Positions 12,903 to 43,419 of a stretch of DNA of 64,000 nucleotides are shown in pieces; positions within the stretch are counted from its first letter, which is position 1, and each line of letters starts with the position of its first letter. The translations under genes and the position numbers were made by a program. The stretch is taken from the NCBI GenBank assembly GCA_963845565.1, contig CAWJSJ010000005.1:544001-608000 (forward strand), in the 5' to 3' direction. The notes below the pieces were generated by a model that had not been told where the DNA came from, did no database searches, and was given only the letters and a program-made list of their open reading frames with translations. The DNA comes from an uncultured Methylomirabilota bacterium (GTDB lineage Bacteria; Methylomirabilota; Methylomirabilia; Methylomirabilales; 2-02-FULL-66-22).

Positions 12903-12961
12903 CAACCGACGATGAAATACCGCACCAACGGTCCGTTGGTCGGTTGTCGGTTGTCCGTTTC
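12903..12961. repeat. Degenerate family-A heptamer palindromic element
   Basis: CAACCGAC left arm, GGTCGGTTGTCGGTTGTCCGTTT right arm. Confidence 0.65.
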
Positions 12962-13019
12962 TCAACGCCGGGTCCTCATGCGCCCCATGGGGACCTGATC
13001 AGTCGGGAGGTTCGACCGG

Positions 13020-14198
13020 ATGGCTCAGAGCAGGTTTGACGAGGTCGTGGACCGGCGGAAGACCGGCTCGCTGAAATGGGACGGAACGCAGACGCGTTTC
13101 GGCGTCGCGGGGGACGATCTGCTGCCCATGTGGGTGGCGGACACGGAATTCCTGACACCCGCGCCGGTGATCGAGGCGCTGGTCCGCCGGGCGCGTCACG
13201 GAGTCTTCGGCTACTCGGTCGCTCCGGCGGCCTATTTCGAGGCCGTCCAGGGGTGGATGCGGCGGCGGCACGGCTGGGACGTCGCGGAGGAGTGGATGAC
13301 CGCGACGCCCGGCGTGGTGTGTGCCGTGAACCTCCTCATTCGCACGCTGACCGATCGCGGCGACGGCGTGGTCATCCAGCCGCCGGTGTACTACCCGTTC
13401 CGGAGGGGAATCGAGGACAACGGATGCCGGGTCCTGGTGAACCGGCTATGCCTCGACGGCGAGCGGTATCGCATGGACCTGGACGACCTGGAGCGGAAGC
13501 TGCCCGACGCCAAGCTGCTGATCCTGTGCAGCCCGCACAATCCCGTGGGGCGGGTGTGGAGCGCGGACGAGCTCCGGACGCTGGGGGAATTGTGCCTCCG
13601 CCACGGCGTGGTCGTCGTCTCGGACGAGATCCACTTCGACCTGGTCCTCCCGGGCCATTCCCACACCGTCTTCGCCACCCTCTCGCCGGAACTCGCGCAG
13701 CAGTCGGTGGTCTGCACGGCAGCCAGCAAGACGTTCAATCTGCCGGGGCTCCAGCCGGCCATCAGCGTGATTCCCAACCCACGCCTGCGGCGCGATTTCA
13801 GCCACACCCTGCGCGCGTGCGGAATTCCGGGGCCGAACGCGTTCTGCCTGGAGGCCGTCACGGCGGCGTACAGGCACGGCGAGGAATGGCTCGCCGAGCT
13901 GCTGGTATACCTGGAGGGGAATGTGGATTTCCTTTCCCGGTTCGTCCGGACGGAGATCCCGCAGCTTCGCGTCGTCCGGCCCGAAGGGACGTTCCTGGCC
14001 TGGCTGGATTGCCGTGCGCTGGGCCTCGACCCGGGGGAATTGGAGCGCCTGCTCCTGTCGAAGGGCCGGCTGGTCCTCAGCCAAGGGCACACCTTCGGCC
14101 CGGGCGGGGAGGGGTTCGTGCGCATGAATCTCGGCTGTCCGCGATCGATGCTGGAGGACGGGTTGGGCCGTCTGGCCCGCGCGGTGCGGAGTCTGTGA
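13020..14198 (+). CDS. MalY/PatB family PLP-dependent C-S lyase (cystathionine beta-lyase-like)
   Basis: SLKWD, LPMWVAD, HGVFGY, LCSPHNPVG, SDEIH, SKTFNL. Confidence 0.9.
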   Translation: MAQSRFDEVVDRRKTGSLKWDGTQTRFGVAGDDLLPMWVADTEFLTPAPVIEALVRRARHGVFGYSVAPAAYFEAVQGWMRRRHGWDVAEEWMTATPGVVCAVNLLIRTLTDRGDGVVIQPPVYYPFRRGIEDNGCRVLVNRLCLDGERYRMDLDDLERKLPDAKLLILCSPHNPVGRVWSADELRTLGELCLRHGVVVVSDEIHFDLVLPGHSHTVFATLSPELAQQSVVCTAASKTFNLPGLQPAISVIPNPRLRRDFSHTLRACGIPGPNAFCLEAVTAAYRHGEEWLAELLVYLEGNVDFLSRFVRTEIPQLRVVRPEGTFLAWLDCRALGLDPGELERLLLSKGRLVLSQGHTFGPGGEGFVRMNLGCPRSMLEDGLGRLARAVRSL

Positions 14199-14280
14199 CG
14201 GGCCGAAGCGGCCGGCCCGAAGGCATGTCCTTAAACCACGACCGGCGGCCCGATGGGCCGCCGGTCGTGATGGCTGCGTC

Positions 14281-14365
14281 TGGTGGGGAAGGAGGGACTT
14301 GAACCCTCATGAGTTGCCTCACACGCCCCTCAAACGTGCGCGTCTGCCAGTTCCGCCACTTCCCC
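14281..14365 (-). tRNA. tRNA-Leu (anticodon GAG)
   Basis: Reverse complement GGGGAAGTGGCGGAACTGGCAGACGCGCACGTTTGAGGGGCGTGT...GGTTCAAGTCCCTCCTTCCCCACCA; long variable arm, encoded CCA. Confidence 0.96.
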
Positions 14366-14563
14366 GCGGATGCATTTCTACCGCCTCGCGCCGCGAATTG
14401 TCAATCGAAAAGCGAGGAGCGAGCGCGCCGAACAGGAGAGGCGTCGGTCACGAACGCGCGCGCGGTCGGCGCCGAGCAACAGCTCGACGGCGGGTTCGGC
14501 TTGAGGTCCGGCGCCGCATTGGGTATGATGAACCGAACCCCGACCACGGAAGGAGCGAGACGC

Positions 14564-15208
14564 ATGCGGGCGGCGACGGTCACGCTGGGGGTCCTGGTGC
14601 TGGTGGGCGCGCTGGCCGGGTGCGCGACCACCACCGTACGACAGACGCGCATCCTGACCGGACAGGTCACCGACGAATCGGGGGCGCCGGTCGCCGGGAA
14701 TCCGGTGTTGCTGGTGGCCCGGTCGCTGGACCTGTCCGCGGTGCGGATGCAGTACGACGAGCGCGGCCGACGCGAAGTGCAGACCGTCACCGACGGCCAG
14801 GGGCGGTACCGGATCGAATTCGTTCCCGCCAGCCTGGGGAACAACTTCTTCCTGTTCTTCTCCGACGCCGCGGGCTTCGATCGGGTCAAATATCAGCGCC
14901 TCGAGCCCCTGGACGTCACCGATCGGCTGCGCCGCGACGGTACGACCACCGTCAATCCGGTGCTGCGGTTTCAACCGAGCTGGCCCGAGGCGGAGCGACA
15001 GATCGCCTTCTACGGGCCGGAGTCGGAGCGGGGCCGGATCCTGCGTAGGCACGGCGTGCCGGAGAAGCGGGAAACCCCGGCGGGACCCGGGGACGCGACC
15101 GAGGCCTGGTGGTATTACGCCGATGGGGTGACCTACTGGTTCAGCGGCTCCGCGCTGATCCGGACCAGCACCTCTCCGTCGATCCCGGGACCGCTGCCCC
15201 CGCGATAG
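14564..15208 (+). CDS. Hypothetical lipoprotein with carboxypeptidase-regulatory-like beta-sandwich
   Basis: SD GGAAGGAG, lipobox LAGC, GQVTDESGAPV...TDGQGRYRI motif. Confidence 0.7.
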   Translation: MRAATVTLGVLVLVGALAGCATTTVRQTRILTGQVTDESGAPVAGNPVLLVARSLDLSAVRMQYDERGRREVQTVTDGQGRYRIEFVPASLGNNFFLFFSDAAGFDRVKYQRLEPLDVTDRLRRDGTTTVNPVLRFQPSWPEAERQIAFYGPESERGRILRRHGVPEKRETPAGPGDATEAWWYYADGVTYWFSGSALIRTSTSPSIPGPLPPR

Positions 15209-15237
15209 GGCCCGGTCGGCCGCAGACGTTCGACCGC

Positions 15238-16281
15238 CTATCGGATCACGCGCTCTGCCTGGACGAGGTCGATGAAGGTCTCCATCAGGCGGGCGTCTGA
15301 CCAGCCCTTGGCGGTCTCTTCGCGCATCAGGGCGAAGGACTGCTCCAGCGGGAAGGCGGACTTGTAGGGCCGCTGCGTGGTGAAGGCGTCGAAGAGATCC
15401 ACCACCTGGAGGATGCGGGCCGTGAGGGGGATCGCCGCGCCGGCGAGTCCGTCCGGGTACCCGCTGCCGTCCCAGCGCTCGTGGTGGTGGCGGATGATGG
15501 GCAGGACCAGGCGCAGGGACCGGAGCGGGGAGCAGATCCGCTCCCCGATGACGGGGTGGGCCTGCATGACCGTCCGCTCCTCCGGCGTCAGCGGCCCTGG
15601 TTTCAAGAGGATGGAGTCCGGGATCCCGATCTTGCCCACGTCGTGCAGGATGCCCCCGCGGTGGAGCGCCTTCAGATACTCCTCCGACACGCCGAGCTTT
15701 TTCCCCAGCGCCACACTGTACCGGGCCAGCCGATCGCAGTGGCCGATCGTGTAGGGGTCCTTGGCCTCGACGCTGAGGGCCAGGCTGAAGAGCACGGTCT
15801 CGGCGTTTTCCAGCTCGTCGGTGTGCCGCTTCAGCTTCAGCAGGGACCGCACGCGGGTGATCAGCTCCTGCCGGTTGAAGGGCTTGCTCAGGAAGTCGTC
15901 GGCGCCCGCCTCGATGCCCCGGATCCGCTGCTCGGTCGCCTGCAGCGAGGTGATCATCACGACGGGAATCAGGATCGTCCGCGCGTCCGACTTGAGCCGC
16001 CGGCAGACCTCGTACCCGTCGAGTGTCGGCATGACGACGTCCAGGAGGATCAGGTCGGGCGGGTCGGCCTCCACCTTGGCCAGCGCCTCGTCCCCGTCCT
16101 GGGCCGTGGAGACATGATACCCCTCGCCGTTCAGTTCGTCCTTCAGCATCTCCCGGTCCAACGCACTGTCGTCCACCGCCAGGATGTGCGTCCGGGCGCG
16201 ATCGTCGGGAAGGGAGGCCGCGAGTCCCTGGAGTGTGAACGTGAACGCCTGCGACTCGGGTTGCGGCTGGATCTCGGTCAT
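15238..16281 (-). CDS. Response regulator with HD-GYP (c-di-GMP phosphodiesterase) domain
   Basis: REC (AVDD, LLDVVMP, SKP) plus HDVGK and HHERWDGSGYPDGL. Confidence 0.92.
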   Translation of the reverse strand: MTEIQPQPESQAFTFTLQGLAASLPDDRARTHILAVDDSALDREMLKDELNGEGYHVSTAQDGDEALAKVEADPPDLILLDVVMPTLDGYEVCRRLKSDARTILIPVVMITSLQATEQRIRGIEAGADDFLSKPFNRQELITRVRSLLKLKRHTDELENAETVLFSLALSVEAKDPYTIGHCDRLARYSVALGKKLGVSEEYLKALHRGGILHDVGKIGIPDSILLKPGPLTPEERTVMQAHPVIGERICSPLRSLRLVLPIIRHHHERWDGSGYPDGLAGAAIPLTARILQVVDLFDAFTTQRPYKSAFPLEQSFALMREETAKGWSDARLMETFIDLVQAERVIR

Positions 16282-16639
16282 GGTCGGTCTTTCCTGGAGC
16301 ACGTTCCCGATGGATGCGACGTATCCGATCGGATCGGCATGGCCGGGTTCCCGGGTGCGAGCGCGCCCGGGCCCGACAGGCACCAGCGCCCCTGAGGCGC
16401 GCCGGAGGACTCTTTAACATACCGCCCGATCACGGTCAAGCGGCCTTTTCCCGTTGCTTTTTGGAAACGGGGCTGGTAGTAAGAATGCGCATTTCCGCCT
16501 CGCGAAGCCCGCCGGCCCGACCCGGCCGCTTGGTGCGCCGGCCGGCATGGTGGGGGTTTCCCGCCACCGTGCGGCGACATCCCGCTGCGGGGCGGGGCAG
16601 GGTTTCCCGTCCGGACAGCGTCTCGGTGTGGAGGAACTC

Positions 16640-17008
16640 ATGGCAAGAGTCCTGGTCGTGGATGATGAACCGGATTCGGTCGAACTGCTGCAGGAGTTCC
16701 TGACCGGCAAAGGGTACGAGGTGATCACGGCGTCCAACGGGGACGACGCCCTCAAAAAGGTCAAGGCGGAGCGGCCGCACCTCATCCTGCTGGACGTCCG
16801 CATGCCCGGGATGAGCGGGTTCGACGTGCTGCGCGAGGTGCGGCAGTTCGATCAGGAGGTCGGGGTGATCATGGTCACGGGGGTCAACGAGGAGGAGGCC
16901 GGTCGCCAGGCGTTGAAGGCGGGCGCCTTCGACTACATCGTGAAGCCCCTGGACCTGGAGTACCTCGAGCGCAGCCTGTGGTACAAGATCACCACGATGC
17001 TGCTGTAA
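16640..17008 (+). CDS. Single-domain response regulator (REC only)
   Basis: VLVVDDE, LLDVRMP, VTG, YIVKP; SD GGAGGA. Confidence 0.9.
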   Translation: MARVLVVDDEPDSVELLQEFLTGKGYEVITASNGDDALKKVKAERPHLILLDVRMPGMSGFDVLREVRQFDQEVGVIMVTGVNEEEAGRQALKAGAFDYIVKPLDLEYLERSLWYKITTMLL

Positions 17009-17013
17009 AGAGA

Positions 17014-17040
17014 CAATGTAAAACCGACAACTGACAACCC
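17014..17040. repeat. Family-A element, left half only
   Basis: CAATGTAAAACCGACAACTGACAACC. Confidence 0.7.
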
Positions 17041-17067
17041 GCCAAGGGGCGTAGAAGGAACCGGACC

Positions 17068-18744
17068 GTGACCAAGGAAGAACTGGAGCAGATCGAGGCG
17101 CAGCAGCGACGCTGGGAAGCGGGAGCGCTCAAGAAGACCCTGGACCGGGCGTCGGAGCGTCAGACGGGGTTCGCCACCACCTCCGGGATTCCGCTGGAGC
17201 GAGTGTACACGCCCCTCGACGTGGCGGGCCAAGACTACGAGCGAGATCTCGGGTTCCCCGGGGAGTACCCGTTCACGCGGGGCGTGCAGCCCACCATGTA
17301 CCGGGGCCGGTACTGGACCATGCGGCAGTACGCCGGATTCGGCACCGCCGAGGAATCCAACCGGCGCTACCAGTACCTGTTGCAGCAGGGGCAGACGGGC
17401 CTGTCCGTGGCCTTCGACCTGCCGACCCAGATGGGCTACGACTCCGATCACGCCATGGTGGTCGGCGAGGTCGGCAAGGTCGGCGTGGCGGTCGACTCGC
17501 TGGAGGACATGGAGACGCTCTTCCGGGGCATCCCCCTGGGCAAGGTCAGCACCTCCATGACGATCAACGCCACCGCCGCGATCCTCCTGTGCATGTACCT
17601 CGCGGTGGCCGAGGCGCAGGGCGTGGCCCGCGCGCAACTGACGGGGACCATCCAGAACGACATCCTGAAGGAATACGTGGCGCGGGGCACCTATATCTTC
17701 CCCCCGACCCCGTCCATGCGCCTCATCACCGATACCTTCGCCTTCTGCGCGGCGGAGTTGCCGCGCTGGAACAGCATCAGCATCAGCGGGTACCACATCC
17801 GCGAGGCGGGCTCCACCGCGGTGCAGGAAGTGGCCTTCACCCTGGCGGACGCCATCGCCTACGTGGACGCGGCCGTCGGGGCGGGTCTCGACGTGGACCG
17901 CTTCGGTCCGCAGCTGGCCTTCTTCTTCAACGCCCACAACCACCTCCTCGAAGAGGTGGCCAAGTTCCGGGCGGCCCGGCGGCTCTGGGCGCGGATCATG
18001 CGGGAGCGGTTCGGCGCCAAGGACCCGCGGTCCTGGATGCTGCGCTTCCATGCGCAGACGGCGGGCTCGTCCCTCACCGCCCAGCAGCCGGAGAATAACG
18101 TGGTGCGGGTGGCGGTGCAGGCCCTGGCGGCGGTCCTGGGCGGCGCCCAGTCGCTCCACACCAACTCGCGGGATGAGGCGCTGGGGCTGCCGACGGAGGA
18201 GGCGGTGCGCATCGCGCTCCGGACGCAGCAGATCCTGGCCCACGAGAGCGGTGTGGCCGAGGTCGTGGACCCGCTGGGCGGCGCGTACGCTGTCGAGGCG
18301 CTGACGTCGCGCATCGAGGCGGATGCACAGGCGTACCTCGACAAGATCGACCGGATGGGCGGGATGCTCCGGGCGATCGAGATGGGCTTCGTCCAGAAGG
18401 AGATCCAGGAGGCCGCCTATCAGGCCCAGCGGGCGCTGGAGGACAAACGGCACGTGGTGGTCGGCGTCAACGAGTTCGTCAGCGAAGGAGCGGCCCGCGT
18501 TCCCGTCTTTGCGGTGGACGAGCGGCTGGGCGTCGAGCAGTGCGCACGGCTCCACGCGGTGCGCGCCCGGCGCGAGGCCGGCCGGGTCCAGGCCGCGCTC
18601 CGGGAGGTGACGTCGGTCGCGGCCGGCACCGGGAACCTTCTCCCGCCCATCCTGGACGCCGTCCGGGCCTACGCCACCATCGGGGAGATCTGCGACGCCC
18701 TGCGCAGCGTCTTCGGGGTGCATCAGGAGACGGTGATATTGTAA
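17068..18744 (+). CDS. Methylmalonyl-CoA mutase family large (substrate-binding) subunit
   Basis: [50 protein letters not shown]; no B12-binding DxHxxG domain. Confidence 0.92.
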
Positions 18745-18774
18745 AGAAGGCGTTCGGCGTTTCGCCGAGCGCGA

Positions 18775-18860
18775 AATGGAAAACCGACAACCGATAACCG
18801 AAAACCCATCAACGGGCCCCATTGACCGGTTTCGTATTGTCGGGTGTCGGTTTTTCATTG
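18775..18860. repeat. Family-A heptamer palindromic element
   Basis: AATGGAAAACCGACAACCGATAACCGA...TCGGGTGTCGGTTTTTCATTG. Confidence 0.8.
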
Positions 18861-18899
18861 GCTGTTGCCTCAAGCGTGCTCCGCTTGTCCGTCTTTCCA

Positions 18900-18929
18900 C
18901 TGAAAGCTGACCGCTGATCGCTGACAGCC
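18900..18929. repeat. Family-B heptamer array (GCTGAnn), half element
   Basis: CTGAAAGCTGACCGCTGATCGCTGACAGC. Confidence 0.7.
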
Positions 18930-19008
18930 GCCTTTCCCATTGACGCCTCTCCGCTGTCTCCAGTAAGGTGGCGGGGGTTGGTTTTCTGGACGACGTGGAG
19001 GGTGAGCC

Positions 19009-20883: not shown

Positions 20884-20900
20884 GCCCTGCGGGCACTGGA

Positions 20901-20986
20901 AAATACTAAAACCGACAACCGAGAACCGGTCAATGAAAAACAACGCATTGGCCGGTTGTCAGTTGTCGGTTGTCCGTTTTACATTG
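20901..20986. repeat. Family-A heptamer palindromic element
   Basis: AAAACCGACAACCGAGAACCGGTCAATG...CATTGGCCGGTTGTCAGTTGTCGGTTGTCCGTTTTACATTG. Confidence 0.85.
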
Positions 20987-21121: not shown

Positions 21122-21153
21122 AAATGGCAAACCGGACCTTTTGAAAAAAGATA

Positions 21154-21182: not shown

Positions 21183-21447
21183 CCCGCCCATTAATAGATT
21201 AGAGGACGATTAGAAAGGGGTTTCCACCCGGACGGCTCCTGGGGCATGGTCGAGGCGGTGCTCGAAAGAGCGGGCGGGTGTTCACGGCGTCATTCTGGTG
21301 CATCCAGTGTCATGCCTCGGTAAAACCGCGATGGCACAACGGCAAAGGGGGGATGTGAAACCGGAAGACTCGGCAAGTTATCTCAGCGGTTCGGTCAGTC
21401 GCTTCACTGGGATCGAACATATCCTACGAGAAATGGAGGGTGACCTA

Positions 21448-22946
21448 ATGAAACAGTTCTGCAAGCTGATGGCCATCGTGGCGCTCGCGCTCCTCGTGGC
21501 CACCCCAGCGATGGCGTTGGACTTCAAGTTCGGCGCCGAGTATCGGGTCCGGTTCTATAACATGGTGAACCAGGGCTTCAGCGACGGCCCAGGGACGAAC
21601 CCGGGCGGTGTCCAGCTCCGCATTCGCCCGCGCTTTGACGTCAGCGACGACAACGGCAACATGACGGCCACGTTGCGGTTGGAGATCGGCGACATCGAGT
21701 GGGGCAACGGCGGCGGCGCGTCGGGCGTGACCAACGCCGGCACGAACGGCAACATCCCGGCGGTGGGCACCCGCGTCGGCAACGGCTCGGGCGGCGCCAT
21801 GGGTGCGGATGGCATCAACGTCGAGACGAAGTGGGCCTACGTGGACTTTGCGTCCCCGATGGGTATCCCGCTCCGCTGGCGCGCCGGCCTCCAGCCCTGG
21901 TATCTGCCGAAGGGCATCATCATCGACGACGACGTGGCCGGCTTGCGGGCCTACGGCAGCTACAAGATGCTAAGCTACGACTTTGGCTGGTACCGCGCGA
22001 GCAGCGGGCAGCCGTGGACCGCGATCACGACGACCGTTTGTACCAACGCCGGTTGTACCACCACGGCGACCGCGATCACGGCGACCCAGAATCCGTCCAA
22101 TAACGTCACCGACAACAACCTGGATTACTACCAGGGCGGTGCCACCCTGAATATGGGCGAAGTGGCTGAACCCCGGCCTGTACTACATCTACGGCCGGAA
22201 CGCGGCCAGCGCGAACCCCGCGGTGGCGTCGCAGCAGTTCCTCGGCTTGACCGTCACCGGCGACCTCGGGTTCCTGAAGTATGACCTGGACTGGTTGTTC
22301 GGTCAGCAGAACGGTGGGAACAGCGGCTCCTTCACGAGCAACGACCCTGGCCGGACGAACGTGCAGGGCTGGGCGCTTGACGCCGGCGTGCACATCCCGG
22401 TCGGCCCGGTTCTGATCCACGCCGTCGGTTCGTACTCCACCGGCGACAAGCAGAACGGCGGCAAGAGCGAGGCGATGCCCTGGATCTCCCCGTCGTGGAA
22501 CGGCGCGGGCGGTCTGTACGAGTTGATCGGCAGCGGCGGCAACTACGACGCGACCGAGACCAGCCAGGACTACCCGGCCGGTCTGTGGATGCTGGGCGCC
22601 GGCGCCGAGTATCGGCCGGTCAAGGCCCTCTGGCTGCGCGGAATGTACGGCTGGGCCGGATGGACCACCAACTCCGCGAACTGTGCCTTCAACGCGCAGC
22701 GGTACCGCAGCCGGCAGCGCGTGCTACGGCCCGAGCTACCGGGGCACGGGCTTCACGGCGACGGCGGCCAACGGTCAGGGTGTCGGCGGCCTCGCCGGCA
22801 AGAGCAGCTTCGGGCAGGAAATCTCCTTCCGGGCCGACTACGACCTCTGGACCAACTTCAAGATCCAGGGCGCGGCCGGTTGGTTGATCCCGACCGGTGG
22901 CGACACGGTCTCCGAGTACGTGCTGCAGCTGTACTACAACTTCTAG
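21448..22946 (+). CDS. Outer-membrane beta-barrel porin (OmpJ-like), interrupted by two +1 frameshifts (~22156, ~22696)
   Basis: Signal peptide ...PAMA, LRLEIGDIEWG, GADGINVETKWAYVDF, C-terminal YVLQLYYNF; three consecutive frames join into ~498 aa. Confidence 0.75.
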
Positions 22947-23025: not shown

Positions 23026-23077
23026 CAATCGTCAATCGTCAATCGTCAACGAACCGACAACCGAGAACCGACCAATG
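23026..23077. repeat. (CAATCGT)3 array fused to a family-A half element
   Basis: CAATCGTCAATCGTCAATCGTCAACGAACCGACAACCGAGAACCGACCAATG. Confidence 0.75.
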
Positions 23078-23744
23078 GAATCCACGCACCTGCACGCCGT
23101 CCCGGCCGGTTGGTGGGTAGGGATTGCGATCGGCACGCGTGCTCGTGCCTGGTGCGGTCGTGCTGGATCGCGACCTGATGGCCGCGCTCCGGCCTCACGG
23201 CCAGGCGGGGCTCGTGGGCTTGATGGGGTGGGTGACGTGGCTTGGGTACGGGCTGGTGGATATCGCGATTCCGCTGGCGATCGGCCTGCGGGCGTGGTGG
23301 CGGGCCGACGCCGCCGCCCTGCGGCGCGGCCTCTTGGGCGGGCTGGCCGTGGCCCTGGCGGGAATCCTGGACCAGCTCCTCAAGAACCTGGTTTGCCGGG
23401 CGCGGCCGAACGCGGCGGCAGCCGGCGCGTTCCTGGCCGTCTTTCCCTGCTTTCCGGCGCCCTACGCCCTGGCCTCGTTTCCATCCGGGCACGCCACCAC
23501 GGCGTTCGCGCTGGCGACGGTGCTCTCCCTGTGGTATCCGAAGGGATGGTGGGCGTGGGGCGCTCTGGCGGCGCTGGTGGGCTGGTCCCGCATCGTCCTG
23601 GGGTCGCATTTCCCGTCGGATGTCCTGGCCGGGGCCGTGCTGGGGTGCGCGGTGGTGCTGGTCTGCGTCCGGTGGTGGCCCGGATTCGTCGGGGTGCCGG
23701 GACAATGCAAAACCGACAACCGACAACCGAGAACCGATCAATGA
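23075..23744 (+). CDS. PAP2 family membrane phosphatase (probable frameshift near 23138; start uncertain)
   Basis: KNLVCRARP, SFPSGH, SRIVLGSHFPSDV motifs. Confidence 0.85.
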
Positions 23745-23787
23745 TGGAGGCGTTTTCCGGTTTCGCACTCTAAGTTGTCCGTTTTGC
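23703..23787. repeat. Family-A element (left flank of TA module)
   Basis: CAATGCAAAACCGACAACCGACAACCGAGAACCGATCAATGA, degenerate right arm. Confidence 0.8.
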
Positions 23788-23853
23788 TTTGACGGTGCGT
23801 TTCAGTCGGGTATCATGAGAGCCATCAGATCGGATTGCGGCGGGGGGTTTTCC

Positions 23854-24072
23854 ATGGATGTGACTCTGCCACTTGACCAGATGACGACCGCAGAAAAGCT
23901 CAACGCACTCGAGGCGATCTGGGAGAGCCTTTGCCGGAGGCCAGATGACGTTCCGTCTCCGTCCTGGCACGCGGATGTCCTGAGGAATCGAGAGCAGCGC
24001 GTCCAGGACGGGTCTTCTCAGTTTATCGACTGGGCCGAGGCGAAACAGAGCATCCGAGACTCCACGAAGTGA
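23854..24072 (+). CDS. Putative addiction-module antitoxin (TIGR02574-like)
   Basis: LPLDQMTTAEKL..EAIWESL...SPSWHADVLRNR...FIDWAEAK; overlaps toxin start (GTGA). Confidence 0.85.
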   Translation: MDVTLPLDQMTTAEKLNALEAIWESLCRRPDDVPSPSWHADVLRNREQRVQDGSSQFIDWAEAKQSIRDSTK

Positions 24073-24359
24073 AGGTCCAGGTTCTTGACGAGGCGCAGCA
24101 AGACCTGGCCGCCGGCTGCCGTTTCTACGAGAGCCAGGTTACAGGTCTGGGTGATTACTTCCTCGATTCCCTATTCTCCGACATCGATTCTCTGCAATTC
24201 TGTGCTGGCGTTCACGCCAGGCATTTCGGCTACAACCGCCTTCTCTCCAAGCGTTTTCCCTTCGCTGTCTACTATCGCGTCGACAAGGGTATCGCGCGGG
24301 TATATGCCGTTCTGGATTGCCGCCGAGATCCATCCTGGACTCGCGACCGGTTGATATGA
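24069..24359 (+). CDS. RelE/ParE family toxin
   Basis: AQQDL...FYESQ..GLGDYF, KRFPFAVYY, AVLDCRRDP. Confidence 0.88.
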   Translation: MKVQVLDEAQQDLAAGCRFYESQVTGLGDYFLDSLFSDIDSLQFCAGVHARHFGYNRLLSKRFPFAVYYRVDKGIARVYAVLDCRRDPSWTRDRLI

Positions 24360-24450: not shown

Positions 24451-24540
24451 CAATGCAAAACCGAAAACCGACAACCGAGAACCGATCAATGACGGAGACG
24501 GTTGTTCGGTTGTCAGTTATCGGTTGTCGGTTTGAACTTG
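24451..24540. repeat. Family-A element (right flank of TA module)
   Basis: CAATGCAAAACCGAAAACCGACAACCGAGAACCGATCAATGACGG...CGGTTGTCAGTTATCGGTTGTCGGTTTGAA. Confidence 0.85.
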
Positions 24541-24681: not shown

Positions 24682-24764
24682 CCATGCAAAACCGACAACC
24701 GAGGACCGATCAATGACGGAAACGGTTGTTCGGTTGTCAGTTATCGGTTGTCGGTTTGAAAATG
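24682..24764. repeat. Family-A element, near-identical to 24451-24540
   Basis: Shares ACCGATCAATGACGGAnACGGTTGTTCGGTTGTCAGTTATCGGTTGTCGGTTTGAA with previous copy. Confidence 0.85.
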
Positions 24765-25782: not shown

Positions 25783-25792
25783 TTTTGGCATG

Positions 25793-25866
25793 TGTTCAAC
25801 GTTCGACGTACGGCGTTCAACGTTGGGCCTCGAACCTCGACCGCTGAACGTTGCATGGTGAACGGC
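25793..25866. repeat. Heptamer palindrome of CGTTCAA/TTGAACG-type units
   Basis: TGTTCAACGTTCGACGTACGGCGTTCAACG...CTGAACGTTGCATGGTGAACGG. Confidence 0.6.
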
Positions 25867-28358: not shown

Positions 28359-28487
28359 TCAGCGATCAGCAGTCAGCAGTCAGCGGTCAGCCAAAGAGAA
28401 ATTCGCAAAGCGTGATCGGGGAACGGCTTTCAGGCAGCGCGCGGCCGTGTCTATTTGTTGACCGCTGACCGCTGAAAGCTGAGCGCT
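28359..28487. repeat. Family-B heptamer palindromic element
   Basis: (TCAGCnn)5 left arm and GTTGACCGCTGACCGCTGAAAGCTGA right arm. Confidence 0.8.
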
Positions 28488-28507
28488 GTTTCGCCCCCCC
28501 CGGCGCC

Positions 28508-33325: not shown

Positions 33326-33430
33326 CAATGGAATACCGACAACCGATACGAGAAATGTAAAACCGATAACCGACAACCGACCATATAATACGGTTGACCG
33401 GTTGTCGTGTCAGTTGTCGGTTTTAGATTG
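33326..33430. repeat. Family-A element (compound)
   Basis: CAATGGAATACCGACAACCGATA...AATGTAAAACCGATAACCGACAACCGAC...CAGTTGTCGGTTTTAGATTG. Confidence 0.8.
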
Positions 33431-34353: not shown

Positions 34354-34440
34354 CAATGTAAAACCGAGAACCGACAACTGAAAACCGATCAACGATCTCC
34401 ATTGGTCGGTTGTCGGTTGTCGGTTGTCGGTTTGGAATTG
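34354..34440. repeat. Family-A heptamer palindromic element
   Basis: CAATGTAAAACCGAGAACCGACAACTGAAAACCGATCAA...TTGG(TCGGTTG)3TCGGTTTGGAATTG. Confidence 0.85.
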
Positions 34441-35067: not shown

Positions 35068-35466
35068 TCCAGGGTCGCGAAGCCGCTGAGCCTGGGACGC
35101 TGACCCTCGCGCTTCAGCTCATTCCCCGGTTAAGAACTGCGAGTCGCGAGGCGCGATTTCCCGAGGCAGACGCTCGGGAATTTGCGGCCGCTCATCGCGC
35201 GACTTGGCGGGGCTCACCAAAAAAGGTGGTGTCGGAATACTAGACACTTTCATGCATGTTCGGGATTCGCCGGGCAACGTTTTCAAGACGTTGACGCTTG
35301 GTACGGTCCGTGCTCCTGATTTCCCTGGCGGGCCATACTCTTCACGCCATCCCGTGCAATGCGGTCGCGGTGTTCAGTCGGCGCTCTTCGCGGCGTGAAG
35401 GAATGCGGATCGGAGTGGTGCGGTGTCGCGCCTCGGTTCGTGGGTGGCGATCGGCAGGGGGATCAT

Positions 35467-35961: not shown

Positions 35962-37613
35962 CGAGAAGAGGCATCTGGGCGGCGGTGGGACGGGCGCTTC
36001 GGTTCTCGGCTCTTTCGTTCGCCATCCTGTTCGGACTGGCAAGCATTATTGCCACCAGTGGGGGTGGTGGTGGCGGCGGTGGCGTTGGTGTGACCGGCAC
36101 CACTGGGGGCACCGGCACCGAAGGGGGCACCGGCACCGTGGCGTTGCTGGTCGGCGATGGACCGGCCGATGATTACGATCACATCTATGTCTACGTGACC
36201 AAGGTGTCCCTCATTCCCGCGCCGGGAAACGCCGCGGGCCAGGTCGTCATATTTCAATCGCCCACGCCCGCCGGTCACAGGGTTGACTTGCTTGCGTATC
36301 GTGACGAGGATTTCCTGCTCGGGATCAGGGGGGATGTCCCGGCGGGTCGGTACGAGAAGATCCGACTCGAGGTCGCGAGCGTCGAAGCCGTGGGTGGACC
36401 GTGCGACCTGGAACTGATCAAGCTGCCGAGCGGGAAGATCGATCTGAACCCCCGCGGCGGCTTCGAGGTGCGATCGGGCGAGTCCCTGGCCATCCGGCTG
36501 GACATGGACGCCAACAAGTCCATCAATCTGCATCCGGCGGGGAATTCCGGCAAGTGCATCTTCCGGCCCGTGGTGTTCGTGGACATCACCCCCGGCGCGC
36601 CGCTCCAGCGGTGTCCGGGGAATGTCACCGGGACGATCATCGAACTCGTTGACCGGGATAAGGACAGGACGGTCGACGGCTTCGTCCTCGACCTCACTGG
36701 AGCGCGAGGCCGCCTCACCGTGTGGCTGGAGCCCGACGCGCCGGTTTTCGCCGCGAATGGCCTTCCGGCAACGGTCGCAATCCTTGCCAAAGGCCAGCAG
36801 GTATGGGCCAGGGGACGCCTGGACGTCCTGGGGCGCTTCCGGGCGCGCGTGGCCGTCGTCGGGGAGGTGCTGACCGTTGACGGGACCGCCCAGGGTCCGG
36901 TGCAGACCCCGGCGAATCTCTTCCCGTTCCGACCCGATGCGGGACAGGAGCTGGTCGGCGATACGAACGTGCGGCTGTTCCAGGGCGACAGTCTCGTGTT
37001 TCGCGGTTGCGACGCCGAGGTGGGGTGGGACGCGATCGCGTCGGGTGTTCCCGCGCGCGTCTTCGGAAAACTCTTCACGCCGTCGCCGTCCGAGTTGCGT
37101 GCCGCCGTGGTCCTGCTGCGACAGGTCACGATCTCGGGCGAGGTTGTCGGGTTCGCCGACTCCGCGGAGGGTCGGCTACTCACCGTGCAGCCGCCTGGCG
37201 GTGTCCCGACGACAGAGGTCTTCGTCCCGACGGACACCCCGATCGTCCTCGAAGGGGACGGACGGGTTCCTCTGGATCTCGTCTGCACGGGGACACGGGT
37301 CCGCGTGCTCGTGGACCCCGACGCTTCCCAGGCGACGGCCACGGAGGTCACGGTGCTCACCGACTCCATCGAGGGCATGGTGACCGAGATCCGGGGCGGG
37401 CGCACGCTGATCGTGCGCCCGGCCGGGCAGGACGTCGGGACCGCCGTCCACGTTCGCGACGCCGCCACCATTCTCGACCAACGGAGCGACAACGACGCAT
37501 TGATGAGTTTCGAGCAGATCAAAGTCGGCGACCACCTCAAGGTATTCGGGTTAAAGCCGAGCTCGTGCAATCTGGCGTTCGAGGGGTTTGTGGTCCTGGT
37601 CGTGACGCCCTGA
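35955..37613 (+). CDS. Exported DUF4382-like protein followed by repeated small beta (DUF5666-like) domains
   Basis: Signal-like N-terminus + Gly/Thr linker; LVGDGP, VDLL, VPAGRYEKIRL, LPSGK, LDMDANKS, FRPV. Confidence 0.65.
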   Translation: MLTRRGIWAAVGRALRFSALSFAILFGLASIIATSGGGGGGGGVGVTGTTGGTGTEGGTGTVALLVGDGPADDYDHIYVYVTKVSLIPAPGNAAGQVVIFQSPTPAGHRVDLLAYRDEDFLLGIRGDVPAGRYEKIRLEVASVEAVGGPCDLELIKLPSGKIDLNPRGGFEVRSGESLAIRLDMDANKSINLHPAGNSGKCIFRPVVFVDITPGAPLQRCPGNVTGTIIELVDRDKDRTVDGFVLDLTGARGRLTVWLEPDAPVFAANGLPATVAILAKGQQVWARGRLDVLGRFRARVAVVGEVLTVDGTAQGPVQTPANLFPFRPDAGQELVGDTNVRLFQGDSLVFRGCDAEVGWDAIASGVPARVFGKLFTPSPSELRAAVVLLRQVTISGEVVGFADSAEGRLLTVQPPGGVPTTEVFVPTDTPIVLEGDGRVPLDLVCTGTRVRVLVDPDASQATATEVTVLTDSIEGMVTEIRGGRTLIVRPAGQDVGTAVHVRDAATILDQRSDNDALMSFEQIKVGDHLKVFGLKPSSCNLAFEGFVVLVVTP

Positions 37614-37719
37614 CGTCCCGGAGGTAGGCGGCGCTCGTGCGTGTTGCAGGAGCGCCGCGAACGGGGCGACGCTATTTCGCCGGCTCGCATCACGGGCGAC
37701 CGACCGCGGGCCTGCAGGT

Positions 37720-38820
37720 GTGTGGGGGATTGCAGTGGCTATTAGCGGAGTTGGGGGTGACGATCCTCGCCCCGGTCGCCGCTCGAGGTCTTGCGACCAG
37801 GGCGTGCGGCCCTGGCGCGTCCTGCTGGGCTTGTTGACCGTCGGCGCGCTCCTGACGCCGATTGGGTCGGCCTGGGCCGCGGGGAGTGGCGGGTCGCGAC
37901 AGGATCCGGGGCGGAATCCGTCACCGCTCCCCATAGGGTCCACACCCGTGGCGACTGCCGAGGTGTCGTTTGATGTGCCTCGGTGGTTCGCGACCGTCAT
38001 GGATCCGTCCACGACCCGGCTGCGACTCTACGGTGTGGGCGACGTCCTGGCGGACCCCAAGGGGGTCGGTGAGGGGTACCGGATCAGGCGGATCGAGGAG
38101 CACGGACTGCAACTCGGCGACCGCCCCGGGCACAAGGCGATCTGGATTCACTCGGGCAGCCTCATTCCGGGACGGCCCGGGTGGCGGCTGACGGGGACGC
38201 TGTGCCTGCGGGTCGTCGAGTATCGGTACGTGCCGACCGGCGGTCCGCTTGATGCGGAGCCGCGGGTGCTCGAACTGCGAGGCGATCATGCCGCGCTGGA
38301 GGTCGATATCTCGACGAACGCGCCGGCGTCCCTCGTCAGCCCGTCGGAGCGCAGGGAGGTTGGCCTCGCGTCCGCGGGGCGCGCCGCGGGAGGGAAGGAG
38401 TTTGAGCACACCCTGCTGGGACGCGTCCGCGTCACGCCGACGGCTGAGGACAGCTACGAGATCAACGCAGCGGACCTCAACGCGGCACTCGCGCACGGCG
38501 TCCAGTTCTTGGCGGAGACCTGGCCCAGGATCTGGCCGAGCGCGTCGTCTCAGTACGGGGTCAATTTCGACGTCCAGTCTCCAATTGCCGACGGGACGCT
38601 GGGCCCTCGTGGATTTCGGGTCACGAGCCCGAAACTGGCGGAACGCGGTGGCCTCGATGCCGGCGACGTCATCTTGGGCGTGAACGGTCAGCCCGTGAAG
38701 AGCTTCGCGGATGTCTTCCGGGTGTATAGTCAAATGGAGCGAGATCCGCAGGTCTCCATCATCCAACTCGACCTGGAACGGCAGGGACAACGGCTCACCA
38801 AGACGTATCGCATTCGCTGA
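37720..38820 (+). CDS. Hypothetical protein with C-terminal PDZ domain (GspC-like); start uncertain
   Basis: TM near N-terminus, GGLDAGDVILGVNGQPV and LERQGQRLTKTYRIR C-terminus. Confidence 0.55.
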   Translation: MWGIAVAISGVGGDDPRPGRRSRSCDQGVRPWRVLLGLLTVGALLTPIGSAWAAGSGGSRQDPGRNPSPLPIGSTPVATAEVSFDVPRWFATVMDPSTTRLRLYGVGDVLADPKGVGEGYRIRRIEEHGLQLGDRPGHKAIWIHSGSLIPGRPGWRLTGTLCLRVVEYRYVPTGGPLDAEPRVLELRGDHAALEVDISTNAPASLVSPSERREVGLASAGRAAGGKEFEHTLLGRVRVTPTAEDSYEINAADLNAALAHGVQFLAETWPRIWPSASSQYGVNFDVQSPIADGTLGPRGFRVTSPKLAERGGLDAGDVILGVNGQPVKSFADVFRVYSQMERDPQVSIIQLDLERQGQRLTKTYRIR

Positions 38821-38891
38821 CCGGAAATCCCCGGTTCCGACAGGTCGCCATCGCGGCGCGCGGCGCATCGGTCGGCACCCGGAAAAAAAAC

Positions 38892-38920
38892 TTGACAAGG
38901 CTCCGGGGCCTCTTTAGACT
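38892..38920 (+). promoter_or_regulatory. Sigma70-type promoter of rho
   Basis: A-tract followed by TTGACA-N17-TAGACT. Confidence 0.7.
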
Positions 38921-39200
38921 GCGCCTAACTTCGAGTTGTCCTCGCACCATCCCACTAACTTTTCCACTCTCGAGGCTTCGAAGGTCGAGTTCGCCCGCTG
39001 CCGTGTCGGGCCCAACAGGTGATTCGCGGGACCATCCAATCGACGGACAGGATGCCTCAGTTACATGTGCATCGCCACTTACGCGCGTCGTCGCGCCGGA
39101 CGCTGGAGCGCCCGGGGGCGGCGGTGCCTTCCGCGGCCGCGAGCCGCGCGCCTGAGCGGCGCGGGATCGTGACCCGACCCACCTCACCAAAGGAACTCCG

Positions 39201-40448
39201 ATGAATCTCGCCGAACTCAAAGAGAAGACCATCGCCGAGCTGACCGGTATCGCCCGCACCTTGAACGTGGTCGGGGCCAGCGGCCTCCGGAAACAGGAGA
39301 TGATCTTCAAGATCCTGGAGGCCCAGACCGAGAAGAACGGCCTGATCTTCGCCGAAGGCGTGCTGGAGATCCTGCCGGACGGCTTCGGGTTCCTGCGGGC
39401 GCCGGACTACAATTACCTGCCGGGGCCGGACGACATCTACGTCTCCCCCTCGCAGATCCGGCGGTTCGACCTGCGGACCGGAGACACGGTCTCCGGACAG
39501 GTCCGCCCCCCCAAAGAAGGGGAGCGATACTTCGCCCTCCTCAAGGTCGAAGCGGTCAACTTCGAGAACCCCGAGCTGGTCAAAGAGAAGATCCTCTTCG
39601 ACAACCTGACGCCACTGTTCCCGAATCAGCGCTTCCGGCTGGAGACGTCGAGCGAAGAGATCTCCATGCGCATCATGGATCTCATCACGCCGCTGGGGAA
39701 AGGGCAGCGCGGCCTGATCGTGTCGCCGCCCCGGACGGGTAAGACGGTTCTGCTCCAGAAGATCGCCAACAGCATCACCAAGAACCACCCCGAGGTGCTG
39801 CTGATCGTGCTCCTGATCGACGAGCGGCCGGAAGAGGTGACCGATTTCCAGCGCTCGGTCAAGGCCGAGGTCGTCAGCTCCACCTTCGACGAGCCGGCCA
39901 CGCGCCACGTCCAGGTGGCGGAGATGGTCATCGAGAAGGCCAAGCGGCTCACCGAGCACAAGCGGGACGTGGTCATCCTGCTGGATTCCATCACCCGCCT
40001 GGGGCGCGCCTACAACACCATCGTGCCCCCGAGCGGGAAGGTGCTGTCGGGCGGCGTGGACAGCAACGCCCTGCAGCGGCCCAAGCGGTTCTTCGGCGCC
40101 GCGCGTAACATCGAGGAGGGAGGCAGCCTCACCATCATCGCCACCGCCCTCATCGACACCGGCAGCCGCATGGATGACGTGATCTTCGAGGAGTTCAAGG
40201 GCACCGGCAACATGGAGCTGCACCTGGACCGCCGCCTCGTCGACAAGCGACTGTTCCCGGCCATCGACATCTTCCGCTCCGGGACCCGACGCGAGGAGCT
40301 GCTGCTCAGCCCGAACGAGCTCAACAAGATGTGGGTGCTCCGGAAGGTGCTGGGAACCATGGGCGTGGTGGAGGCCATGGAGCTCTTGCAGGAGAAGATC
40401 AAGGAGACCAAGAGCAACGACGACTTCCTGCGCGCCATGAACCAGTAG
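39201..40448 (+). CDS. rho: Transcription termination factor Rho
   Basis: [43 protein letters not shown]. Confidence 0.98.
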
Positions 40449-40558
40449 GCGCCGGGCCCGCCGGGACGCTTTTCTCTTGCCGCGCCCGCGGGAATTGCTT
40501 ATCATACCGACCCGCGCGACCAAGCCGTTCCACAACGCGCGCCCGAGGAGGCGAAACC

Positions 40559-40792
40559 ATGAAAGCCGGGATTCACCCCGAGTACGTTCCTGCCATCGTC
40601 AGTTGCGCGTGTGGAGAGGTGATTCACACCCGCTCCACGGTGTCGGTCCTGAAGGTGGAAATCTGCTCCAAGTGCCACCCGCTGTTCACCGGCCGCCAGA
40701 AGCTGATCGACAGCGAGGGCCGCGTGGAGCGGTACCAGCGCAAATACGGGCGCAAGCCGGCGACGACCGAGCCGGGCACGGCCGGGGCTTAG
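40559..40792 (+). CDS. rpmE: 50S ribosomal protein L31 (Zn-binding type)
   Basis: [23 protein letters not shown]. Confidence 0.96.
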
Positions 40793-40945
40793 CAGGCTGC
40801 TGAAAAAGGCCCATCTGCTGCGTTGTCGCGCTCGCGCGGCGCTGCGGCGTACGCGCTAAGTACGCCTCGCACCTCGCCTCGCGCTCCGCCTTGCGGATAG
40901 ACCTTTTTGAGCAGCCTGAGCGAAAACGAGTTTTTCAGCATCCTG
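40793..40945. mobile_element. MITE with 15-bp terminal inverted repeats and TTAG target duplication
   Basis: TTAG|CAGGCTGCTGAAAAA...TTTTTCAGCATCCTG|TTAG; extra internal IR copy at ~40904-40918. Confidence 0.8.
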
Positions 40946-41315
40946 TTAGGATGCCGTGGCCTAGCCGGGATTGCCCAGGCGCCCCGCTCCCGGGCCTGCA
41001 CCCGGCCGGACGGGGAGGGGGATGTTCCCCATGAGCCGAACGTCTTCGACCGCCATGACCCCGCCGGCCGCCTGCGCGGCCGACGGGGTGTGGCGTTTGT
41101 CTATCCGGGCAGCCGAGTGGCGGCCCGCCCCCGGGATGTCGCTCCACCTGGACGCTCACCATCACCCGACCGCCGGCGGGCATCACCACTAGCCCGCCCC
41201 CTGCGGAGCCGGGTCCCGCTCTCGTCGCCGTTCCGCCGTTTCGTTTGCTGCTGCGTCTGATGTGCGGTCCCCGGGGCGCGTCGCCCGGACCGGTCATCCT
41301 TTCGACGAGGTTTCG

Positions 41316-42392
41316 ATGTCCACATTGATCGACAAGCTGGCTGCCATCGAGCGCCGCCACGGGGAGATCGTGCAGCGGCTCTCCGACCCGGCGGTGCTGG
41401 CGGATCCTGCGGAGTATCAGCGAGCGGCCAAATCGCACGCCGAGCTGAATCCGGCGGTGGAGGAGTACCACCACCTCAAGAAGCTGCTCCAAGAGATGGA
41501 GGGCGCGCGCGGCCTCCTGCAGGAGACCGTCGACGCGGAGATGCGCGAACTGGTCGCGGCGGAGCTGGCGGAGCTCGAACAGCGGCGGGCGGCGCTCGAG
41601 GCGGCGCTCGAACTCATGCTGCTCCCCAAGGATCCCGCCGACGAGCGGAACATCATCCTGGAGGTCCGGGCCGGCGCGGGCGGGGAAGAGGCCGGCCTGT
41701 TCGCGGCCGAGCTGTTCCGCATGTACCTGCGGTACGCCGAGACGCAGCGCTGGCGGGTGGAGATGATCGCGGGCAACGCCACCGGGATCGGCGGGGTGAA
41801 AGAGGCGATCTGCACGGTGGAGGGTCGCGGGGCGTACAGCCGGCTCAAGTTCGAGAGCGGCGTACACCGGGTGCAGCGGGTGCCCGCCACCGAGGCCAGC
41901 GGGCGGATCCACACCTCCACGGTCACGGTGGCGGTGCTCCCCGAAGCGGAGGAGGTGGACATCCAGATCAATGCGAATGATCTGCGCATCGATGTCTTTC
42001 GCTCCACCGGGCCCGGCGGGCAGAGCGTCAACACGACCGACTCGGCCGTCCGGATCACGCACTTGCCCAGCGGGCTGGTGGTGACCTGCCAGGACGAGAA
42101 GTCCCAGCACAAGAACAAGGCCAAAGCGCTCAAGGTCCTGCGCGCCCGCCTCTACGACCAGGAACTCACGCGGCGGAAGGCCGCCATCGATCAGAACCGC
42201 CGGACGCAGGTCGGGAGCGGCGAGCGGGCGGAGAAGATTCGCACCTACAATTTTCCCCAGAATCGGGTCACGGACCACCGCATCGGGCTCACCGCCCACA
42301 ACCTGAGCGCGGTGCTGGAGGGAGACCTGGACGACTTGATCCAGGCGCTGGCGGCCCACGACCAAGCGGAGCGCTTGAAGGCGCTGTCATGA
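41316..42392 (+). CDS. prfA: Peptide chain release factor 1
   Basis: [12 protein letters not shown] (PxT), [23 protein letters not shown]. Confidence 0.97.
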
Positions 42393-43387
42393 TGCGACTG
42401 CGACTGCCCGAGATGCCGCGCTTCCTGCAGGGGGACGCGCTGTCCCTGCCGCACGACTGCTGCCCGGCCGTGGACGCGTGTGTGGCGAGCGGGGCGCTCC
42501 TCTTGGAGCAGGCCGGCATCGAGACCGCCCGCTTGGACGCGGAGTGCCTGGTGGCCGCCGTCCTCGGCTGTGCGCGCTGGCAACTGACCCTGGAACCGCA
42601 CCGGCGTCTCGCGCCCGACGAGTTCGGCCGCATCCTGCGGCTGCTCCAGCGCCGGGAACGGCGCGAGCCGCTGGCCTACGTCCTCGGGACGCGGGAGTTC
42701 TGGTCGCTGCCGTTGGCCGTCTCGGCGGGCGTGCTGGTTCCCCGGCCGGAGACCGAGACGCTGGTCGAAGCCGCGCTCGCCGCGTGGGGTGAGCTGAGAG
42801 CTGAGAGCCGAGAGCCGAGAGCCGCGAGCCGCGAGATGCGAGCGGAGAGCGGAGATGCGGGGCCCACCATCGTGGAGTTGTGCACGGGGTCGGGCGCCGT
42901 GGCCATCGCCCTCGCGAAGGAATTGCCGACCGCGCGCCTGCTGGCGACGGACGTCTCCTGGCGGGCGCTCCGCGTGGCGCGTGCCAACGCGGAACGGCAC
43001 GGCGTCGCCCCGCGGATCGCGTTCCTCCGCGGGGATCTGTGGCGGGCCGTCAACGGACAGGCGCCGGCCGGATCGGTGGACCTGGTGGTGGCGAACCCGC
43101 CCTACCTCAGGTCGCCGGAGCTCGCGACGCTGATGCCCGAGGTCCGCTGGGAGCCGCGTCTGGCGCTGGACGGAGGGGCCGACGGCTTGCGGGTGCTCCG
43201 CGAGATCGTGGCGTCCAGTCCCGACCGGCTCCGTCCCGGCGGCGCGCTTCTGCTGGAGATCGGGGCGGACCAGGCCGAGGCGGTGGGGGCCCTGATGGCC
43301 GCCTCGGGCCGGTTCGAAGCGGCCCGGCTGCGTCGGGATCTGGCGGGGCGGCCCCGCGTCGTCGTTGCTCGACGACGCGGAATGTAA
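42389..43387 (+). CDS. prmC: Release factor glutamine methyltransferase (with in-frame heptamer insert)
   Basis: [37 protein letters not shown]. Confidence 0.93.
42790..42854 (+). repeat. Family-C (GAGAGCC-type) heptamer array inside prmC
   Basis: GAGCTGAGAGCTGAGAGCCGAGAGCCGAGAGCCGCGAGCCGCGAG...; encodes [21 protein letters not shown]. Confidence 0.85.
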
Positions 43388-43419
43388 AACGGACAACCGA
43401 CAATAGAAAACCGATCAAT
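43381..43419. repeat. Family-A half element containing the prmC stop codon
   Basis: AATGTAAAACGGACAACCGACAATAGAAAACCGATCAAT. Confidence 0.75.

Follow-up and report, generated by a model that had tools for sequence, protein, structure and literature searches.

Heptad elements at the locus

The 64,000-nucleotide stretch of DNA analyzed here (hereafter the window; positions 544,001 to 608,000 of contig CAWJSJ010000005.1, assembly GCA_963845565.1, from an uncultured Methylomirabilota bacterium) includes a series of housekeeping genes in a common orientation (mcm, ispB, lepA, lepB, hrcA, grpE, dnaJ, coaE, rho, prfA, prmC and murA) interspersed with copies of a palindromic element whose arms are tandem AACCGAN heptamers, referred to below as family A. 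An initial annotation made from the letters alone had listed 11 copies in ~30 kb, and the element was confirmed at all 11 positions (Table 1); a count of the two-heptad motif gives 32 for the window, where 200 triplet shuffles have a mean of 0.07 and a maximum of 2. The full hairpin of ~85 bp described there is the form of the seven copies at 18774, 20901, 23703, 24451, 24682, 33326 and 34354, which are whole and whose RNA folding z-scores range from -3.4 to -8.9, but not of the truncated hairpin at 12903 nor of the three lone left arms at 17014, 23051 and 43380, which do not fold (z = 0.04, 0.91 and 0.25). Their placement at junctions of co-directional genes also stands, with 27 of the 31 loci found in the genome so placed (28 once a miscall at the frameshifted murA gene is corrected), although it is no enrichment over the 80% of background gaps that share this orientation (p = 0.22/0.10). 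In keeping with the same annotation, no transposase family was matched among the open reading frames (ORFs) scanned in the window (two sets of 34 and 37, out of 279 listed), and an Rfam scan of the window at the gathering score returned two tRNAs only, with no structured RNA at the A copies.

Two of the window copies overlap the gene upstream: the 23703 copy begins 41 nt within the PAP2 gene, and the 43380 copy provides the stop codon of prmC. Since the latter element is whole in G009, one of the other genomes of the genus, it has likely been reduced to a lone arm here by a deletion whose endpoints were short repeats found at both arm ends. At the PAP2 site G009 has one element where the present genome has two with a two-gene module between them (this module being absent from G009), an arrangement that is consistent with deletion or recombination between two copies. 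The mcm/FG-GAP gene junction of G009 is occupied by a different heptamer family in place of A.

Table 1. Copies of family A and associated features in the window; an empty strand cell means that no strand was assigned.
Feature	Position	Strand	Remarks
Truncated A hairpin, 3' of oppC-type permease	12903..12967		z -3.2; orthologous copies in G010 and G014
Lone left arm, response regulator / methylmalonyl-CoA mutase gap	17014..17041	+	profile match
Whole 87-nt A element between mcm and FG-GAP gene	18774..18860		z -5.7
Whole A element between FG-GAP and porin genes, decayed at outer left end	20901..20986		z -7.4
Lone left arm 5' of PAP2 gene, adjoining ATCGTCA-type array	23051..23077	+	
A element over PAP2 3' end, right arm decayed; site 2 neighborhood	23703..23791		
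Addiction-type two-gene module between two A copies	23854..24359	+	PF09720 antitoxin-like 72 aa + 96-aa partner
Whole A element	24451..24540		z -4.7
A element, left arm of four heptads, 5' of ispB	24682..24764		87% identity to 24451 copy
ispB-lepA junction (site 3): other heptamer family, no A element	25783..25850		
lepA-lepB junction (site 4), empty in this genome	27672..27674		
Compound A element between histidine kinase and 5'-3' exonuclease genes, with an additional partial left arm	33326..33430		z -5.1
Best whole A element (87 nt), between exonuclease gene and coaE	34354..34440		z -8.9
Lone left arm supplying prmC stop codon	43380..43419	+	whole in G009

A gene-carrying form of the element

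In four other genomes of the genus, A arms enclose a short ORF, which lies between ispB and lepA in G004 and G012, between lepA and lepB in G010, and among carboxylase genes just 5' of mcm in G001, in the interval that matches the 17014 copy of the window. The product is a four-helix bundle of 118 residues that scores above the cut-off for both PF05635 (S23p/Avd-like) and TIGR02436. The initial annotation had proposed to look for a co-located transposase of the RAYT (REP-associated tyrosine transposase) or HUH kind; the partner of the element turns out instead to be this PF05635 gene, and no A-armed RAYT appeared among the flanks that were read.

Genes of PF05635 are present in 20 of the 21 genus genomes, the match set of a seeded multi-round search being steady at 115 from the second round (the first seed included one unrelated ORF). 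Among 95 near-complete proteins of the genus, 62 have a periodic word common to the upstream flank and the reverse-complemented downstream flank, as opposed to 6% of mismatched flanks. The four proteins with A arms fall into a single clade (support 0.99), hereafter the A clade, of which L110:2912-3265 is an example; the automated arm test passed only one of these four loci, whose arms were therefore read directly. More generally, arm likeness follows protein relatedness: with 61 same-site pairs removed, its rate falls from 78% among the 9 closest pairs to 40% among the 20 that follow and to 1% among the 1547 distant pairs. The same coupling emerges from metagenomes, where, among the best 80 of 178 homologues, A arms accompany 18 of the 20 with at least 66% identity (17 of them on both sides) and none of the 60 with at most 58%, which mostly have other heptamers.

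In the gene-enclosing form the start codon lies 7-9 nt past the inner arm end in 10 of the 17 loci measured. Of the 95 cassettes of the genus, 54 are co-oriented with both flanking genes and 4 opposed to them. The genome under study has no A-clade gene; its sole PF05635 match is frameshifted and armed with another word.

Distribution in the genome and the genus

Searched at E<=10, the arm profile yielded 36 clusters in the genome, and nothing once the genome was reversed. At E<0.3 there are 31 A loci, again with none in the reversed genome, so that a genome-wide scan of the kind suggested by the initial annotation adds 20 loci to those of the window. Eleven of the 31 fall within 31 kb, compared with a maximum of 5 across 20,000 random placements. 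All in all, about 190 elements over 12 arm families were tallied in this genome.

A covariance model of the element found matches in 16 of the 18 other genus genomes and, weakly, in 1 of 42 genomes from other families of the order, which makes family A nearly restricted to one genus of the Methylomirabilota. (An exact-pattern scan of the species genomes returned 3 stretches in 2 records and is too strict to describe the distribution.) Within the genus, orthologous junctions are patchily occupied by A, often with another heptamer family instead. The 20 further loci, the patchy junctions and the existence of a full-length, gene-carrying form jointly support the proposal of a non-autonomous mobile or recombinogenic family.

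In 8 genomes of the genus an ArnT-like glycosyltransferase gene contains an A element in frame (e.g., L026:14479-14556, L016:1139-1212, L022:10570-10652), of which all stages of shrinkage can be seen with the reading frame mostly kept; there is no empty allele, at least a remnant being present in 8 of 8. The copies are likely to reshape genes, whether by supplying stop codons, by inserting in frame or by bordering modules that are gained or lost.

Anatomy of the arms

The internal structure of the element was derived from 32 whole copies of 10 genomes selected with a strict anchor. Each element spans ~87 nt and each arm is a 38-nt heptad array in which an outer C and an inner CA enclose five heptads in phase. 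The number of units, left open in the initial annotation, is five in 22 of the 32 5' arms and 23 of the 32 3' arms, and the loop between the inner arm ends measures 11 nt in 14 copies and 14 nt in 6. Words vary with position, the outer heptad being of the AATG type, the middle ones mostly AACCGAC and the inner one AACCG(G/A)Y, while the AA and GA positions are almost invariant.

The arms pair at just 72-79% in register, and a left arm resembles its own right arm no better than that of another copy in the same genome (0.79 in both cases; p = 0.57-0.70), that is, there is no within-copy covariation. Nor do G-U pairs exceed A-C mismatches on the sense strand, be it in the inner 23 nt (34 vs 52), over 37 nt (61 vs 73) or in a third count (49 vs 64); a set of 27 copies, several of them mis-anchored, likewise showed neither covariation nor G-U excess. 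Judged by the sequences, the conserved feature is the heptad word array and not an RNA stem, because arm sequence is kept without covariation or G-U excess; the suggestion that the element is a signal for mRNA stability or processing finds, for the same reason, no support at this level. An RNAalifold consensus of 20 copies gave two-sided changes in 3 of 17 pairs and a positive covariation term, and was discarded since register slips make it unreliable.

Variant words are shared more within a genome (likeness 0.35, 260 pairs) than by different genomes at one and the same site (0.26, 253 pairs; p = 0.058) or at random (0.23; permutation maximum 0.30). One arm word is private to G010, where it occurs in four of five elements and in no other genome, and G001 and G015 have many compound forms whose arms are duplicated. 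Such sharing of variants within genomes indicates turnover or homogenization of the arms within lineages.

Four junctions and local movement

All 24 A-clade genes, that is, those of the four genomes and of 20 metagenome loci (two of which duplicate others), reside at four junctions that correspond to ~17.0-~27.7 kb of the window: seven among the carboxylase genes before mcm (site 1), five before the ArnT-like gene or after PAP2 (site 2), eleven between ispB and lepA (site 3; G004, G012 and nine metagenome loci) and one between lepA and lepB (site 4; G010). At site 4, A copies or arms without the gene occur in the genomes G001, G006, G007, G012 and G014.

Site labels are not monophyletic in the A-clade tree. 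The gene of G010, at site 4, and that of metagenome locus L175, at site 3, are sisters (bootstrap 100); the flanks of L175 are closest to those of G010 (82% and 85%, vs 69-74% and 79-82%), the two have arms that begin alike, and they share an arm word private to them. The site-2 gene of L160 likewise groups with the site-1 genes of L156/L157 (bootstrap 98). Since sister hosts carry the gene on opposite sides of lepA, the gene-carrying cassette has likely moved locally, and movement of this kind would explain the clustering of 11 copies in the window. G012 adds a whole gene at site 3 and, at site 2, two elements enclosing a 32-nt gene remnant that has 94% identity to the gene carried there by L171, which argues for copying followed by loss. 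Proximity to a home site was also assessed across families: 6 of 23 for family A lie within 30 kb, vs 3 of 191 for others. This test left out 8 of 20 families on account of few copies, no home site, redundancy or many control matches.

The protein and its predicted structure

The predicted model of the A-clade protein (pLDDT 96) matches BT_0352 (2RLD, five chains), Xcc0516 (2GSC) and Avd (4DWL). Among the columns of the protein alignment, a Ser and a Glu position are invariant. Xcc0516 consists of five four-helix bundles according to the title of its paper, as cited in PMC10053308, and Avd is described as a positively charged pentamer whose five protomers all contact one RNA stem-loop (10.1101/2023.10.23.563531). 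As for A arms, five units is the mode for 7-nt arms throughout the genus (38 of 111).

Other repeats and neighboring features

The window contains further elements with periodic arms, at 25783-25850, 28360-28488, 49019-49096, 59378-59556 and 23028-23050, built from the words AACGTTC/AACCTCG, AGCGGTC, the 8-nt AATTGGGC (twice) and ATCGTCA; words related to these arm four-helix-bundle genes elsewhere in the genus. A family of AGAGCCG heptamers is found in frame inside prmC (42778-42870) and hisF (50321-50440), both frames of which stay open. The metagenome homologues L176-L235, with 49-58% identity to the A-clade protein, have mostly ATTTGTC/ATTTTCC arms, and since the reverse complement of these resembles the A word, related proteins seem to use a related word with the arms facing the opposite way.

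Small toxin-antitoxin-like pairs that differ by genome lie beside A elements (window 23854-24359, L016 ~2200-2900 and 6330-6790, and upstream in L160); only the antitoxin of the window has a family match (PF09720), the remaining labels having been assigned by eye, and its 96-aa partner returned no family match. The genome also has five genes for Y1-type transposases of ~330 aa (e.g., G000:C3:53527-54504), one with inverted ends of its own that are unrelated to A. The murA gene (43427-44689) is split over two frames, the porin gene (21298-22946) is apparently split and the gene at 15377-16395 is suspected of being so; these splits are possibly assembly errors. In one RNA run from sediment, contigs reach a depth in the hundreds over the porin gene (21300-22900). 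The contigs of the four RNA runs compared at 85% likeness derive from mixed organisms and carry no information on transcript ends or strand, and were not used as evidence.

Origin of the repeats and alternative explanations

These observations lead us to propose, with an even chance of being right, that the 11 repeats are gene-less derivatives of a PF05635 cassette which is copied over short range into the gene junctions of operons, and whose predicted pentamer binds the heptads as DNA. The proposal is founded on the arm anatomy, the coupling of word to protein clade, the four occupied junctions, the co-orientation of the cassettes and the lack of a cognate gene in the present genome, where the window copies are likely orphaned and decaying. 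The cassette would lack a promoter of its own and be expressed from the host operon; its protein would act mostly in cis, as some transposases prefer to do, giving rise to local hops. The pentamer would bind its cognate heptads in DNA with about one protomer per heptad and pair both arms, strand transfer being carried out by host recombination or repair or by the protein itself, and internal deletion of the cassette would leave the 87-nt form.

Several observations weigh against this proposal. We found no clean pair of filled and empty sites, so that the insertion chemistry is unseen, and the 7 copies with intact ends show no target duplication over 1 nt, just as in shuffled sequences (in old copies a duplication may have been lost). 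Several sites retain the element across the genus, something not required of an element that is purely selfish. In the tree of the A clade the deep nodes have supports of 12-57, and the placement of L160, L163, L172 and L174 at site 2 relies on one flank each. Home-site enrichment is significant for A only (p = 0.33-0.57 over 11 families without A), and same-family adjacency without A falls from p<0.001 to p = 0.04-0.09 after removal of duplicates. Many other protein clades each occupy a single orthologous site (the 61 same-site pairs), and therefore the coupling of word and clade is partly shared inheritance. The higher copy density of the four gene-bearing genomes (10-24 per Mb vs 0-19.5 in 15 others; p = 0.012) speaks for the proposal, but derives from incomplete and related genomes with capped counts. 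Arms of 8-nt words most often have four units (13 of 45, with five in 11), for which reason the number of units may reflect a length rule of ~35 bp rather than one unit per protomer. Finally, the PF05635 protein has no catalytic activity known or shown, and its binding to the heptads is a prediction.

The alternatives differ mainly in whether the element acts as RNA, as a host signal, as the substrate of a foreign transposase or as no element at all. An RNA route, by which an mRNA hairpin similar to an intervening sequence (IVS) would be cut by RNase III, bound by an Avd-like pentamer and copied through an RNA or cDNA intermediate, is unlikely in our judgment: the strong folding of whole copies, the co-orientation of cassettes with transcription and the contact of all five Avd protomers with an RNA stem-loop are all in its favor, as is the IVS of Coxiella burnetii, which is described as having an S23p ORF flanked by terminal inverted repeats and as being cut by RNase III (PMC4990558), yet the arms pair incompletely and show neither covariation nor G-U excess. 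Moreover, PF00078 reverse transcriptases are missing from this genome, the single one searched, cleavage would break the message at the in-frame ArnT-like copy or remnant that persists in 8 genomes, and hops of one to few genes are not obviously expected. Somewhat less probable still is a host-domesticated operon signal, i.e., old insertions kept as mRNA stabilizers, pause or processing sites, whose presence and absence reflect loss only. It would account for the retention of elements at the same junction (12 genomes at the histidine kinase/exonuclease junction, 8 at prmC-murA), for a copy elsewhere in the genome that is common to G005 and G032, and for the position of most co-directional copies within ~45 nt of the upstream stop; however, from genome to genome a given junction may be occupied by one heptamer family, by another or by none, 3 of the 11 window copies are non-folding lone arms, structural covariation is absent and two genus genomes have no match.

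We regard as improbable a classical MITE (miniature inverted-repeat transposable element), or a repetitive extragenic palindrome (REP) or REP doublet forming a hairpin (REPIN), whose movement would depend on a DDE or Y1 (RAYT) transposase acting in trans, the four-helix-bundle gene being mere cargo. Although the description of MITEs in PMC3184786 agrees in size, in terminal inverted repeats, in folding as hairpins and in fusions to gene ends, and Y1 transposases occur in 21 of 21 genus genomes, with one Y1 gene of this genome near a weak A match, the flanks inspected (two of the five genes here and one in G004) have no A arms and the remaining Y1 genes are 9-86 kb from any A match. The GTAG/CGTC tag lies near an end in only 1 of 31 loci, the 7 copies show no target duplication over 1 nt, and the arms track the PF05635 clade. 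Neutral microsatellite hairpins, immobile and produced by in-place slippage and template switching, are very improbable and largely refuted: duplicated-arm compound forms and the over-representation of heptamer repeats in bacteria (PMC4692102) would be expected from them, but not the fixed ends, the modes of five units and 11 nt of loop, one word at 31 loci or the coupling of arms to one protein clade, and in-place mirror copying would not yield copies whose two arms are no closer than arms of different copies.

A wider and distinctly more tentative prospect, which we think possible though on balance doubtful, is that PF05635 pentamers mobilize an undescribed class of minimal element devoid of a recognizable transposase, in which each clade would read its own 7-base word with about one unit per subunit on an arm of five units. 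Produced from the transcript of the host operon, the protein would act in cis, moving the cassette by one or two genes each time and leaving gene-less hairpins in its surroundings. If true, this would account for the heptamer-repeat excess of bacteria, long noted and unexplained (PMC4692102), as well as for the origin of ORF-bearing rRNA intervening sequences. Family A offers a defined pair for testing, namely one clade of 118-residue proteins and one 38-nt arm, with the other word/protein pairs of the genus as many specificity controls, and its phylogeny gives evidence for shifts of the gene-carrying form from junction to junction within a few kilobases.

Comparison with known systems

Repeats of 7-nt units have been described before. 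The convergent GGGAATC pairs of Xanthomonas and the TAACTGA repeats of Beggiatoaceae are likewise intergenic tandem arrays, at times inverted or in frame (PMC4692102; PMC4679880), and a repeat-binding protein was suggested as the mobile agent of the latter (PMC4679880), in whose available text the terms 'four helix' and 'intervening sequence' are absent. Family A differs from these published repeats in its word, in its defined ends and unit number, and in having a candidate protein identified through synteny and phylogeny. Cyanobacterial short tandemly repeated repetitive (STRR) sequences are tandem heptamers of described words in cyanobacteria. Family A does not belong with them, its host being a member of the Methylomirabilota.

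With MITEs, A shares terminal inverted repeats, a length below 200 bp, a long stem-loop and the lack of a transposase gene (PMC3184786), and the full-length element that matches the A ends carries PF05635. REP sequences are defined by a GTAG/CGTC tag at one end of a 20-40 bp palindrome (PMC3733652), from which A departs in having the tag at just one locus of 31 and an element of ~87 nt. The likeness to REPIN/RAYT systems lies elsewhere: these too are dispersed, extragenic, gene-less inverted doublets with single arms arising by decay, each flavor being tied to a single-copy gene flanked by the same repeats (PMC3116915; PMC3733652). The partner of A, in contrast, is a four-helix-bundle protein and not an HUH/Y1 enzyme, its arms are 38-nt heptad arrays without the tag, the A gene itself changes junction, and A copies are clustered whereas REPIN doublets are reported to be randomly distributed (PMC3116915).

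The Avd protein of diversity-generating retroelements has the same fold (TM 0.72-0.79) and is a nucleic-acid-binding pentamer (4DWL; 10.1101/2023.10.23.563531), although it is about 15% identical to the A-clade protein and the A loci have no template/variable repeat; no reverse transcriptase lies beside the genes inspected, PF00078 has no match in this genome, and the A-clade flanks are housekeeping genes. The 23S rRNA IVS of C. burnetii, as portrayed in PMC4990558, is also a PF05635 gene inside terminal inverted repeats, ~430-500 nt in total and sporadic; mobility by way of its ORF was put forward there as a hypothesis, and the function of the S23p/PF05635 family is given as unknown. Family A differs from this IVS in residing at protein-operon junctions (24 of 24 A-clade genes lie between protein genes and none in rRNA), in its arms of five heptads, in its dozens of gene-less copies and in lacking an RNA-structure signature. 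We found no published link of non-rRNA PF05635 genes to heptamer-armed elements, most subscription journals and supplements being outside the scope of the search, and a gene-plus-repeat system with PF05635 is apparently not in print. Family A is best described as REPIN/RAYT-like in its working and Coxiella IVS-like in its build, while being a member of neither.

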